DNA of 64,000 nucleotides from assembly GCA_016432325.1 (NCBI GenBank), contig CP066684.1, positions 329,018 to 393,017 on the forward strand, written 5' to 3'. The position numbers were made by a program, and so were the translations under genes. Source of the stretch: Candidatus Aenigmatarchaeota archaeon. Its GTDB lineage: Archaea > Aenigmatarchaeota > Aenigmatarchaeia > PWEA01 > JACQIF01. The notes beneath the pieces are model-generated. The model saw only the letters and a program-made list of their open reading frames with translations, ran no database searches and had not been told where the DNA came from. Shown piece by piece: positions 35 to 47,898 of the stretch (positions are counted from its first letter, which is position 1; the number at the start of each line of letters is the position of its first letter).

Positions 35-970
35 ATGGCGCTGTCCATTGTCCTTCTTGCGGCGCTGATATACTTCGCCGATGTGGACACAATGGCGCGC
101 GTGCTCTCTTCCGCGAATCTGGTCTATGTGGCAGCCGGCTTCGGCGTCTGGATTCCGATGACGGCCCTGCGCATATACAGATGGAAATACCTGCTCGAAA
201 AAGTCGATATCCGCCTGCCGTTCCACAAGATTTCAACGGTGTTTCTTGCAGGATTCTATCTTTCGAACATAACGCCGGCAAAGAGCGGCGACCCGATACG
301 TTCTGTGCTGCTGAGGAGGGCCTGCGGCGTCTCCTTCGCCAAGTCCCTTCCGTCGGTGCTGGTCGAAAGGCTGATTGACGTGACAGTGATGGTCCTTCTG
401 GCTCTTGTGGGCCTGCTATTCATACCGCAGGGTGCGTACACGAACTATCTCTACTCAACCGTTGGGCTCTTCATGGCCGCATCGCTTGTTGTAGTCTTCA
501 TAGTATCGTCGAGAAAGCGAACGTACGCCGTCGCCAAGACGTTCCACGGGCTGTTTTCATTCTTCCCAAAAATCAAATCTCTCGAGGGAGTCATCAAGTC
601 GCGCTCCAACGCGCTTTCGGACTCCTTCGTCACGTACGGGCACGTGCCATGGCTCATCTCCGCGGCCATAATGACGGCCTGCATCTGGTTTCTGGAAGGA
701 GTCGTGGGAAAGATTGCGTTCCTGTCTATAGGCGTAAACGTCCCTATAATGGCCGTGGTCGCTGTAATAGTCATATCAACGCTCATCGGCGTCCTCACCC
801 TTCTTCCGGGAGGCATCGGACCGACTGAAATATCTTCTGTCGCGATGTTCGTGGTTATCGGAGCCGCATCTTTGCAGGATGCCGCTGCCGCCGTCCTGCT
901 CATGCGACTCATGTCATATTGGATGTACGTAACAGCCGGTTCCGTTGTTCTCGCAACGAAAATCAAATGA
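35..970 (+). CDS. Flippase-like / UPF0104 (lysylphosphatidylglycerol-synthase TM-region-like) integral membrane protein
   Basis: 311 aa, ~8 TM segments, conserved UPF0104-type N-terminal region; ATG at 35 verified; frame open to window edge. Confidence 0.55.
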   Translation: MALSIVLLAALIYFADVDTMARVLSSANLVYVAAGFGVWIPMTALRIYRWKYLLEKVDIRLPFHKISTVFLAGFYLSNITPAKSGDPIRSVLLRRACGVSFAKSLPSVLVERLIDVTVMVLLALVGLLFIPQGAYTNYLYSTVGLFMAASLVVVFIVSSRKRTYAVAKTFHGLFSFFPKIKSLEGVIKSRSNALSDSFVTYGHVPWLISAAIMTACIWFLEGVVGKIAFLSIGVNVPIMAVVAVIVISTLIGVLTLLPGGIGPTEISSVAMFVVIGAASLQDAAAAVLLMRLMSYWMYVTAGSVVLATKIK

Positions 971-1019
971 TCGGGCCGCCGAGAGTTCACAGCAAGGGCC
1001 TTTGAAACCGAAGGTTTGA

Positions 1020-44007: not shown

Positions 44008-44793
44008 ATGCAAACCTATATCCGCGTTCTGGAGAAACCAAAACTAAAGAACCCCATACTAATCGAGGGTCTGCCCGGAATAGGCAACGTCGGCCGCATC
44101 GCCGCCGGATACCTCATCGAAGAGCTGAAGGCCAAGAAGTTCGCCGAGCTCTATTCTCCTCACTTCCTGCCTTACGTGCTGCTGCACGACAACGTGGCCG
44201 AAGTCCTCAAGAACGAATTCTACTTCTGGAAAAACCCGAAAGGCGACGACATCATAATACTCGTCGGCGACTCGCAGGCAGGGGACCCCAGCGGCGTCGG
44301 CCACTACGAGGTTGTCGAGAAGATACTGGATTTCTGCCAGGAGCTCGGCGTCAAGAAGATATTCACCCTTGGAGGATTCGCCACCGGCGAGATAGAGGAG
44401 ATGAAGGGCATCGAAGTGCTGGGAGCCGTCAATGAGGCCAAGCTCGCCAAGACGTACGCGTCCGCAGGCGTGAACTTTTCAGACACCGCCTCGCGCATCG
44501 GCATGATAGTGGGCGCGACAGGCCTGCTGATAGGTCTCGCGAAGCAAAGGAACATGGAAGGGGTCTGCCTGATGGGCGAGACCGCGGGCTTCCCGATTCT
44601 GACGGACCCGAGAGCCGCGGAGAAGGTCCTGCAATCCCTCGCCAAGATGCTCGGCGTCGCGGTCGATTTGGGAACCCTCGACAAGCGCGTCAAGGAGATG
44701 GAGGAGTTCCTCAAGAAGATAGAGAAGATGCAGCAGAAGGCCATGAAACAGCTCACGACCAAGGAGGGCGAGAAGCTGTCGTACATCGGCTAG
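44008..44793 (+). CDS. Proteasome assembly chaperone family protein (PAC2, COG1938)
   Basis: ILIEGLPGIGNVGRIAAGYL signature. Confidence 0.7.
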   Translation: MQTYIRVLEKPKLKNPILIEGLPGIGNVGRIAAGYLIEELKAKKFAELYSPHFLPYVLLHDNVAEVLKNEFYFWKNPKGDDIIILVGDSQAGDPSGVGHYEVVEKILDFCQELGVKKIFTLGGFATGEIEEMKGIEVLGAVNEAKLAKTYASAGVNFSDTASRIGMIVGATGLLIGLAKQRNMEGVCLMGETAGFPILTDPRAAEKVLQSLAKMLGVAVDLGTLDKRVKEMEEFLKKIEKMQQKAMKQLTTKEGEKLSYIG

Positions 44794-44837
44794 GCCTGAA
44801 AACTGCGTTTAAATACTTGTCTGCGGGTCAGGGTGTT

Positions 44838-45074
44838 ATGACTGCAACAGAGGGGCTCATCGGCCGCGTTTTCAATCCGGAACGCGTCACCAAGTTCGAG
44901 AAGACCAGAATCATAGGAGCGCGTGCGCTGCAGATAGCCGTGGGAGCGCCGCTGCTCATGGAGATAAAGGGAAAGCTCACCGAGCCCATAGACCTTGCAA
45001 AGATGGAGTTCGCCGAAGGCGTGATACCAATATCAGTCCGCAGGGCCATGCCCAAGAAGCTGGAGAAGAAGTGA
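44838..45074 (+). CDS. rpoK: DNA-directed RNA polymerase subunit K (Rpo6/RpoK)
   Basis: TKFEKTRIIGARALQIAVGAP core motif; ATG 44838 with TATA 44808-44818. Confidence 0.85.
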   Translation: MTATEGLIGRVFNPERVTKFEKTRIIGARALQIAVGAPLLMEIKGKLTEPIDLAKMEFAEGVIPISVRRAMPKKLEKK

Positions 45075-45078
45075 ATTC

Positions 45079-45282
45079 ATGGAACCTCAGGAAATTAGCG
45101 AACACGACCGCAATATTATCAGAGCTCTTCGAATCCCCCACGTGCACGGGTGCACCCTTGTCGCAGAGTTTGGTGAGCCCGAAGATAGGTCGTGCTGCGA
45201 CGCGCGCAGAGAGCTCAGGGATTATCTTAGAAAGAAGGGCCTTGTCAGAGACGGCTTCGAACAGGACATACCATACAAGTGA
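45079..45282 (+). CDS. Small hypothetical protein (67 aa), paralog A of tandem pair
   Basis: Shares RNI..IP..GCT...GLVxDG...DIPxK pattern with downstream ORF. Confidence 0.4.
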   Translation: MEPQEISEHDRNIIRALRIPHVHGCTLVAEFGEPEDRSCCDARRELRDYLRKKGLVRDGFEQDIPYK

Positions 45283-45482
45283 TGCAAATGGTTGTACTAA
45301 GCGAGAGCGTCCGTAACATCAGAGTCGCAATGATTCCTCTAGGAGATGACGGCTGCACAGTCTTCAGCGAATACAACAACGGAGAATATTCCGCCGGAGA
45401 CGACTTCCTGCAGGACTTGATCTACGATGGCCTGTTGGTAGACGGACTGCGAAAGCGCTCTGATATTCCAGGAAAATGCTAG
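45282..45482 (+). CDS. Small hypothetical protein (66 aa), paralog B of tandem pair
   Basis: Start overlaps stop of paralog A (GTGATG); homologous to 45079-45282. Confidence 0.4.
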   Translation: MQMVVLSESVRNIRVAMIPLGDDGCTVFSEYNNGEYSAGDDFLQDLIYDGLLVDGLRKRSDIPGKC

Positions 45483-45589
45483 CCGTGTTCTTTCTTCTGC
45501 CGCGCTTCAAGCCAGTTCCATGCTATCAGGGCAATCATCAGGAACGTGCCGCCGAATATCGCTATCGCGGTGCCCAACTGGTTTGGCAT
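45479..45589 (-). CDS. Putative 36-aa single-TM peptide (MPNQLGTAIAIFGGTFLMIALIAWNWLEARQKKEHG)
   Basis: ATG 25-30 nt from palindromic TATA CGTTTAAATACG shared with rps2; hydrophobic core. Confidence 0.25.
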   Translation of the reverse strand: MPNQLGTAIAIFGGTFLMIALIAWNWLEARQKKEHG

Positions 45590-45656
45590 GCGATAGGTGC
45601 GGAAAAAGCGTTTAAATACGTGACTAATACACCAACAGTGTGATTGCGTGAGTGAA

Positions 45657-46906: not shown

Positions 46907-47371
46907 TTACCCGCCACCGCCGCCTCCGTCGCCAATCGGTTCTGTTGAAGACAGAGCGCCCATAAGCGCGTCGTACGCCTGCGGGAAACTCTCTCCGACA
47001 AAGGGTAGGACTGATTTGTCCGTTGCGTCGTATTTTATTCCCAAGTAGACCTTGTTGTCTCCACCTTCGGCGAAGATATGCCTGCCTTTCATAATCCAGT
47101 CGTCCACAGGATCCGACGCATACTCTTGGCCGCGTTCGTATCGAGGGTGCCTGAGACCCTCCCATGATAGGTAGTCGAAGGATACGGCCGCCAGCGCGCT
47201 CTCGACAGTCGGCATTCTCGCGCCGGCCTTTACACGAGTCCTGGCCCGCGGATTGGGGCTAACGAGCACGGCTTCTCTCAAGTCGTTGCCGACCTTGCGT
47301 ACCTTGAGGGCGAGGCCCTTTTGCAGGGCCGCATCGATGCCGCCGAAAAGGTATCTTGCATGATGGGTCAT
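46907..47371 (-). CDS. Hypothetical protein (154 aa, Gly-rich C-terminus)
   Basis: ATG verified; likely co-transcribed with upstream hypothetical. Confidence 0.4.
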   Translation of the reverse strand: MTHHARYLFGGIDAALQKGLALKVRKVGNDLREAVLVSPNPRARTRVKAGARMPTVESALAAVSFDYLSWEGLRHPRYERGQEYASDPVDDWIMKGRHIFAEGGDNKVYLGIKYDATDKSVLPFVGESFPQAYDALMGALSSTEPIGDGGGGGG

Positions 47372-47418: not shown

Positions 47419-47898
47419 TTATAGAACGTAATCGTGAAGCACGTCCGTTCGCCCTGTGAACGCCTCTCCAGTCGCGGGCTGCGGCTTGTACGAAGGAATC
47501 ATGTGCAGAATCTTCCTGACGAACGGCTCCTTTGGTTCCTTCGGTTCCCGCGGCTTCATCTTCGTGAGCAGCCACGACGCGTGCGCCGAGCCGAGAGCTA
47601 TGCCGGGCGCAGCGTCGCGGAACAGGTCATTGAAGAAGTACAAAGGAAGGTCATATGCAGGGTTAACGACTTCAATTGCCTTTTGCACCGCATAATCGAA
47701 CACGTACACCGTCCCCTCTGCGGCGGCTGTGGCGACGGCACTCGTACCAACCGCGCGCAGCGACTTTTCTACTCGGCTCGTCACGGCGTCACCCGCCCTG
47801 CGGTTGATCAATTCGGCCCATCCGCCGCCGTACATGAGACCGAACACGTAACCGAAGACGTTCTGAGCTCCGTAATGCACGAGCTTCCCTTCCTCCAT
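47419..47898 (-). CDS. Hypothetical protein (159 aa)
   Basis: ATG 47898 sits 30 nt from TATA GCATTTAAATTG; listed TTG 47928 abuts the TATA. Confidence 0.4.
   Translation of the reverse strand: MEEGKLVHYGAQNVFGYVFGLMYGGGWAELINRRAGDAVTSRVEKSLRAVGTSAVATAAAEGTVYVFDYAVQKAIEVVNPAYDLPLYFFNDLFRDAAPGIALGSAHASWLLTKMKPREPKEPKEPFVRKILHMIPSYKPQPATGEAFTGRTDVLHDYVL

Follow-up and report, generated by a model that had tools for sequence, protein, structure and literature searches.

A tandem pair of small orphan genes between rpoK and rps2 in an Aenigmatarchaeota genome

Introduction

In a metagenome-assembled genome of Candidatus Aenigmatarchaeota (DPANN), two small ORFs are packed between rpoK, encoding RNA polymerase subunit K/Rpb6, and rps2, encoding uS2. 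In GenBank, ORF1 and ORF2 are annotated as the hypothetical proteins HYS81_02410 and HYS81_02415 on a contig of 874,869 bp. Are they genes at all, and if so, how did two of them come to lie in this place? The original prediction, made by reading the sequence, was that they form a tandem pair of paralogs of no recognisable family, in a slot that holds other conserved genes in many archaea. I performed a bioinformatic analysis of the pair, its neighbours, and the corresponding loci of relatives. In the following, the window is the whole stretch of 64 kb that was analysed, and positions are counted from its first nucleotide.

Results

Locus map and gene packing

The features of the locus are as follows.

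44008-44793, plus strand: PAC2 gene
44805-44816, plus strand: BRE/TATA promoter-like motif GCGTTTAAATAC, 5′ of rpoK
44838-45074, plus strand: rpoK (RNA polymerase subunit K/Rpb6), 78 aa; Pfam PF01192 Rpb6, E = 3e-9
45079-45282, plus strand: ORF1 (HYS81_02410), 67 aa, with an SD-like GTGA at -8 to -5
45282-45482, plus strand: ORF2 (HYS81_02415), 66 aa, paralog of ORF1, with an ATG sharing its A with the TGA of ORF1; alternative starts are GTG 45279 (67 aa) and ATG 45288 (64 aa, the GenBank call)
45479-45589, minus strand: membrane-peptide gene, 36 aa, single-pass, convergent with ORF2, with orthologs in the related loci L005, L007, and L009
45608-45619, plus strand: second copy of GCGTTTAAATAC, between the membrane-peptide gene and rps2, with the palindromic core TTTAAA
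45657-46244, plus strand: rps2 (uS2), 195 aa from ATG 45657 or 198 aa from GTG 45648; Pfam PF00318, E = 1e-22

The genes are packed almost base to base. The stop codon of rpoK is followed after 4 nt by the start of ORF1, an ATG of ORF2 has one base in common with the TGA of ORF1, and the CTAG palindrome at 45479-45482 provides the TAG stop codons of both ORF2 on the plus strand and the membrane-peptide gene on the minus strand. Since one CTAG serves both convergent stops, the transcripts of these two genes must overlap at their 3′ ends. The cassette of about 404 bp fills the interval from the rpoK stop to the stop of the membrane-peptide gene. Further along the window, two adjoining minus-strand genes (46907-47371, 154 aa, and 47419-47898, 159 aa) downstream of a GCD14-type methyltransferase gene have no Pfam family on record.

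Paralogy of ORF1 and ORF2

ORF1 and ORF2 can be aligned by BLASTP over their full length with 32% identity (pairwise E = 8e-6). A MAFFT alignment has 22 invariant columns and yields the common pattern SE..RNI..A.IP..GCT..E...GL..DG..DIP.K, so that the shared residue pattern pointed out in the original prediction is real. In shuffle tests on ORF2, the local alignment score was reached by 4 of 20000 shuffles and the global score by none of 20000. When the whole window was searched by six-frame tblastn, the match between ORF1 and ORF2 had an E value of just 0.07, the same score being reached by one unrelated match; thus, the case for paralogy is built on adjacency, equal length, and end-to-end collinearity in addition to the score. 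Similarity between the two ORFs at the DNA level is not significant, the identical residues use the same codon in 8 of 22 cases, and no further copy of either ORF was found elsewhere in the window. The coordinates and the content of the predicted pair between rpoK and rps2 hold, and ORF1 and ORF2 are confirmed as adjacent collinear paralogs, in all appearance products of a tandem duplication of one small gene.

Coding status and selection

Two paralogs can be compared codon by codon. In a protein-guided alignment, ORF1 and ORF2 are 50%, 65%, and 35% identical at the first, second, and third codon positions, respectively. The third positions are at shuffle level (595 of 3000 codon shuffles reach the observed identity), while the second-position identity is reached by 28 of 3000 shuffles. 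By the Nei-Gojobori method, pS is 0.84 (saturated) and pN is 0.41, and the test for constraint gave p = 0.008 (Fisher) in a single 62-codon pairwise comparison; having no independent ortholog, the pair offers this one comparison as its evidence of protein constraint. The two frames are equally long and uninterrupted. These results indicate, with moderate strength, an old duplication in which both copies have apparently been held under protein-level constraint, rather than a decaying repeat.

Codon usage is less telling. The log-odds scores of ORF1 and ORF2 are 0.12 and 0.18 bits per codon, which corresponds to the 11th to 14th percentile of real-gene windows (ORF1 at the 11th) and to the top 4-6% of non-coding (wrong-frame) windows. 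Their GC3 values of 0.60 and 0.58 are at the low edge for the genes of this genome (0.69 ± 0.07), and one antisense frame in the ORF1 region scores slightly above the sense frame. Four other assemblies (Logan contigs) have the locus and are 100% identical to the window, and are thus uninformative for a population-level selection test. A structured RNA in place of a protein was rejected, as there is no Rfam match and the folding is no better than that of shuffled sequences (z = +1.2). Overall, I put the probability that ORF1 and ORF2 are real, lineage-specific, duplicated coding genes at roughly 0.65, judging from the sequence.

Promoter and translation signals

The exact 12-mer GCGTTTAAATAC occurs in the window only 5′ of rpoK and 5′ of rps2; with at most one mismatch, the window has 5 matches, where 0.18 would be expected. 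The copy before rpoK is placed 22-33 nt upstream of the ATG, and genes heading transcription units in the window have such a box 20-35 nt upstream of their ATG. A 23-nt direct repeat, AAANNGCGTTTAAATACNTGNCT, was found at 44800-44822 and 45603-45625, upstream of rpoK and of rps2. With a palindromic TTTAAA core and a position between rps2 and the membrane-peptide gene divergent from it, the second repeat copy may act as a promoter in both directions.

No copy of GCGTTTAAATAC was found inside rpoK-ORF1-ORF2. Genes that are operon-internal or leadered (Nop10, L44e, rps2, and the 154-aa ORF) have (G)GTGA(T) at about -11 to -5 instead, and the SD-like motifs of ORF1 and ORF2 match those of Nop10, L44e, rps2, and others in their spacing. 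In ORF2, GTGAT is found at -9 to -5 of ATG 45288, where it overlaps the stop codon of ORF1. Because of this placement, the true start of ORF2 may be 45288, which I infer to be the likelier one, and a 5-nt spacer would then follow ORF1 rather than a start/stop overlap. The overlap that was originally described is thus present in the sequence, in that ATG 45282 shares a base with the ORF1 TGA, but it may not involve the start codon that is used. Since the pair has no promoter motif of its own and an SD-like GTGA before both starts, it is probably co-transcribed with rpoK, and its translation would be SD-dependent or coupled.

Homolog searches

Does the pair have homologs anywhere? A word-indexed search of 5.8 billion clusters returned only the self matches of ORF1 and ORF2. 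A full HMMER profile search of 1.84 billion representatives found no homolog; besides self, there were only two extra matches (P0003 and P0004), which are internally repetitive proteins matched over short stretches and were discarded as spurious. No family match was found for ORF1 or ORF2 in Pfam, NCBIfam, PHROGs, or PADLOC, and the scans of metagenome contigs and viral contigs gave nothing for the pair. At E ≤ 10, tblastn found no match to the pair in 50,697 phage genomes or in a plasmid collection, and each ORF alone found nothing in the PDB. The prediction that the two ORFs belong to no recognisable family thus agrees with all of Pfam, NCBIfam, PHROGs, PADLOC, and PDB, and the homology search that it had proposed as a check gave significant matches only to self across protein, profile, and contig searches.

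Some candidate relationships were rejected. Membership in a defence, anti-defence, or phage family has no PADLOC or PHROG match behind it. The protein eS12, the third PDB match of the two-sequence profile, aligns non-collinearly at E = 0.6 and was taken as chance. By eye, 'RNIIRALRI' of the pair resembles 'RIIGARALQI' of RpoK, and a derivation of the pair from duplicated rpoK was considered; hhalign of the pair alignment against a six-sequence RpoK alignment gave a probability of 0.1%, and there is no match to PF01192. The pair is most likely an orphan restricted to one species-level lineage, as far as can be judged from these sequence searches.

Synteny in relatives and origin of the pair

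Relatives were located through their rps2 proteins, and the loci L005-L012 were compared. In the following list, the rps2 identities of L007, L005, L009, and L008 are from the tree alignment; the corresponding BLASTP figures are 83, 81, 77, and 75%.

L007, rps2 84%: rpoK, membrane peptide (minus strand), rps2; without the pair
L005, rps2 80%: rpoK, membrane peptide (minus strand), rps2; without the pair
L009, rps2 78%: rpoK, membrane peptide (minus strand), rps2; without the pair
L008, rps2 76%: enolase, DUF488 (minus strand), rps2
L012, rps2 56-60%: PAC2-rpoK-enolase-rps2
L010, rps2 56-60%: PAC2-rpoK-(280 aa, minus strand)-enolase-rps2
L011, rps2 56-60%: enolase-(121 aa)-rps2
L006, rps2 49%: rpoN-rpoK-rps2, directly adjacent

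Orthologs of rpoK were found in L005, L007, L010, L012, and L006. Enolase appears to be the usual occupant of the slot between rpoK and rps2, judging from the loci compared here; a literature search on the rpoK-eno-rps2 gene order yielded nothing usable. The statement that the slot holds other conserved genes is borne out for related archaea by the enolase genes of L010, L012, L011, and L008. Enolase is absent from the slot in the window, L005, L007, and L009, and is also absent from the whole 64-kb window. A remnant of enolase or DUF488 was looked for and rejected, since tblastn of the enolases of four relatives and of other slot occupants gave no match at 45000-45600 (E ≤ 10).

The pair is absent from the slot in all of the relatives compared. 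In L007, L005, and L009, the distance from rpoK to the membrane-peptide gene is 0-3 nt, or the two genes overlap; thus, there is no room for the pair. An hmmsearch of the pair profile against six-frame translations of loci L005-L012 gave nothing better than E = 2. According to the original prediction, a lack of homologs with a conserved frame in relatives would refute it. Taken literally, this is what was found, the relatives being without the pair altogether. However, the paralogs test the frame of each other, in that positions 1 and 2 are kept and position 3 is randomised, so that the absence points to lineage restriction rather than to spurious ORFs.

A neighbor-joining tree of rps2 has the topology ((window, L007), (L009, L005)), L008, with short internal branches, and is based on this single protein. 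With this topology and the absence of the pair from relatives, the most parsimonious account is that the window lineage gained it once. The pair thus most likely represents a lineage-specific addition of about 404 bp, the polarity depending on a single-protein NJ tree. A mobile element with terminal repeats or a target-site duplication is not supported, as the locus has just short repeats at chance level. Synonymous sites between the window and L007 are near saturation (pS 0.65-0.70). The membrane peptide has a pN of 0.38 between the window and L007, which is similar to the pN of 0.41 between ORF1 and ORF2; thus, the duplication could have taken place in situ after the gain, and the import of a pre-formed pair need not be assumed. 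The source may have been an unsampled mobile or viral element, or else the pair may have been born de novo.

Other insertions were seen in these loci. The interval between rpoK and rps2 includes unannotated genes in L011 (2029-2394, plus strand, 121 aa) and L010 (382-1224, minus strand, 280 aa), neither having a Pfam match. Lineage-specific genes seem to have landed in this interval repeatedly. Between Nop10 and PAC2, L005 has an extra 95-aa ORF (690-977, minus strand) containing HYYTCTHCGMPY, where the window has a 44-nt spacer; tblastn of this ORF found no similarity in the window. This ORF is a further small insertion, specific to its lineage, within the conserved string of genes. A further sequence, P0013, an archaeal-type uS2 with 59% identity to that of the window, carries the NCBI label 'Thermotogae bacterium'; its contig of 2,744 bp is probably mis-binned.

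The conserved membrane-peptide gene

The original prediction also placed a gene for a 36-aa transmembrane peptide divergently from rps2. This gene exists, shares the near-palindromic TTTAAA box with rps2, and is kept in three relatives, where the orthologs are located as follows.

L005 2122-2244, minus strand
L007 3821-3931, minus strand; not called as a gene
L009 108-224, minus strand

Four related Aenigmatarchaeota lineages, exactly those without enolase in the slot, thus encode a membrane peptide of 36-40 aa between rpoK and rps2. The four-way alignment shows 47-53% identity, with M1, Q4, I11, F12, G13, G14, L17, W26, L27, and R30 invariant and the pattern M[PT][NS]Q...IFGG.(F/L)L...W.WL..R+. 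The codon score of the gene in the window is 0.49, the best of the six frames. No significant family was found for the peptide; Ost4 (E = 0.11) and NF052408 (E = 0.012) are both far below cutoffs. On this sequence evidence, the case for a conserved gene is stronger for the membrane peptide than for the ORF1-ORF2 pair.

Protein properties and structure models

The predicted products of ORF1 and ORF2 are both acidic, ORF2 strongly so (pI 5.9 and 4.3, respectively), and no hydrophobic membrane segment was recognised on reading either sequence. They are best explained as small acidic soluble proteins of the cytoplasm. The AlphaFold2 model of ORF1 (pLDDT 63.7, pTM 0.49) has helices at residues 8-17, 25-31, and 39-52, while the AlphaFold model of ORF2 (pLDDT 39.4) is unusable. 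With models of such low confidence, no stable fold is demonstrated and no fold can be assigned. A Foldseek search of the model against the PDB returned only matches with E > 1, the weak top ones including the HTH proteins 5duk, DosR, MecI, and DeoR. The third helix of ORF1 is basic (ARRELRDYLRKKG), and its counterpart in ORF2 is acidic (DDFLQDLIYDG). This contrast, together with the paralogy and the coupled expression, leads to the guess that the two proteins form a heteromer.

Discussion

How could the pair have arisen, and what could it do? In the account that I propose, one small gene would have been duplicated in tandem to give ORF1 and ORF2, orphan genes of one lineage, as a cassette placed between the rpoK stop and the membrane-peptide stop, in the slot that enolase occupies in other Aenigmatarchaeota. 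Transcription would occur by read-through from the rpoK promoter, with the motif at 44805-44816 as the presumed promoter, and translation from the SD-like GTGA 5-9 nt upstream of each start. ORF1, near-neutral with a basic C-terminal helix, and the strongly acidic ORF2 would most likely work as a hetero-oligomer with an accessory, dispensable function. Since the closest relatives do without the pair, it is not a core component, and my best guess is a non-essential accessory pair whose members bind each other.

Three other accounts were weighed against this one. It is conceivable that the ORFs are non-functional, the 404-bp insert being selfish or junk DNA or a decaying duplication whose frames are open by chance and were annotated because they are open. 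Such an account would agree with the lack of homologs anywhere, the absence from close relatives, the codon scores and GC3 values at the low end, the poor structure predictions, and the marginal ORF1-ORF2 match in the whole-window search (E = 0.07). However, neutral decay would erode all codon positions equally, while positions 1 and 2 keep 50-65% identity and position 3 is randomised. Both copies are open over 64-67 codons in a genome of 56% GC, they fit base to base into the space from rpoK to the membrane-peptide gene and have SD-like motifs at the correct spacing, and the terminal repeats or target-site duplication of a mobile element are missing. I regard non-functional ORFs as unlikely. 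Somewhat more doubtful is that the genes were born de novo from non-coding sequence left after the loss of enolase and were then duplicated in place, as a very young family. About 15 billion proteins include no homolog, the slot has been remodelled in the clade (enolase gone, a new membrane-peptide gene present), codon usage is weakly adapted, predicted foldability is low, and the similar pN values of the paralogs (0.41) and of the membrane peptide between the window and L007 (0.38) make an in-place duplication after the split feasible. All this fits a birth in situ, but L007, L005, and L009 have no spacer between rpoK and the membrane-peptide gene, so that no ancestral raw material is visible, and the pair retains no similarity to enolase, DUF488, other slot occupants, or rpoK.

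The position directly after rpoK raises another possibility, namely that the pair encodes factors of the transcription machinery, either a modulator of RNA polymerase resembling Xp10 P7 or a minimal HTH DNA binder, and is co-expressed with RpoK for that reason. Xp10 P7 (2mc5, 73 aa) is the best PDB match of the two-sequence profile (positions 11-58), its C-terminal helix aligns with the predicted ORF1 helix 39-52, and hhalign gave a pairwise P of 2e-5 against the aligned P7 fragment, a value that re-scores a pre-selected best match and is no longer significant when the size of the PDB is allowed for. The match has an E value of 0.31 against the PDB and is not significant, single ORFs find nothing in the PDB at E ≤ 10, the phage tblastn was empty, and P7 targets bacterial β′ and β-flap elements. 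As for HTH proteins, which are among the weak top Foldseek matches, those matches all have E > 1 from a low-confidence query model, and no Pfam HTH family was found (the best, RecX_HTH1, has E = 0.054 over 12 residues, below the cutoff). Both proteins are acidic, ORF2 with a pI of 4.3, unlike DNA binders, and close relatives with the same rpoK are without the pair. A role in transcription is accordingly improbable on these results. The most far-reaching version would be a lineage-specific heterodimeric transcription accessory factor, functionally like Xp10 P7, recruited into the rpoK operon of an episymbiotic DPANN lineage, or, as a variant, a de novo family caught shortly after its birth and duplication in a core operon; I consider this a long shot. 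Neither RNA polymerase binding nor de novo birth is made likely by the present findings. If one of them were true, the pair would be a tidy example of how core operons acquire new small proteins in reduced genomes of archaea.

The reading of ORF1 and ORF2 as duplicated, lineage-specific coding genes has a value of its own. That the ORFs are real genes is supported from within by the two diverged copies, the gain is placed precisely in the conserved string PAC2-rpoK-[enolase]-rps2, and a stepwise remodelling is visible across relatives, in which enolase was lost, the membrane-peptide gene was gained, and then the pair was gained.

Comparison with known systems

The resemblance to Xp10 P7, an RNA polymerase inhibitor and antiterminator (2mc5), is one of size, the P7 protein being 73 aa, and of a weak collinear match over about 48 residues, including an amphipathic C-terminal helix with ...YL+K/R.G at its end. 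A link to RNA polymerase exists in both cases, through the gene neighbourhood for the pair and through function for P7. P7 has a β1-β2-β3-β4-α1 fold and binds to bacterial-specific elements, the β′ N-terminal element and the β-flap (PMC3985653). The pair is chromosomal and archaeal, and its low-confidence model is all-helical, whereas P7 is a phage protein and the match has E = 0.31. The likeness to winged-helix/HTH proteins consists of three helices in the low-confidence ORF1 model (pLDDT 63.7) and an 'L...GLV' at the end of the third helix; the pair differs from them in having no Pfam or NCBIfam HTH match and in being acidic (pI 5.9 and 4.3).

Type II toxin-antitoxin modules, like the pair, consist of two small genes that are coupled or overlapping, variable between lineages, and inserted between housekeeping genes. 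However, ORF1 and ORF2 are paralogs, which a toxin and its antitoxin are not, and no toxin or antitoxin family was found in Pfam or PADLOC; a toxin-antitoxin module was rejected on these grounds.

The closest likeness in kind is to the orphan small-protein genes of DPANN archaea, which share with the pair the lack of a detectable homolog, short products, confinement to one lineage, and absence from the syntenic site of relatives. The pair is a new orphan family, and orphan families are very common in DPANN genomes. Unlike most orphans, it has two diverged tandem copies, which provide internal evidence of protein constraint, and it is embedded in a highly conserved information-processing string, PAC2-rpoK-[eno]-rps2.
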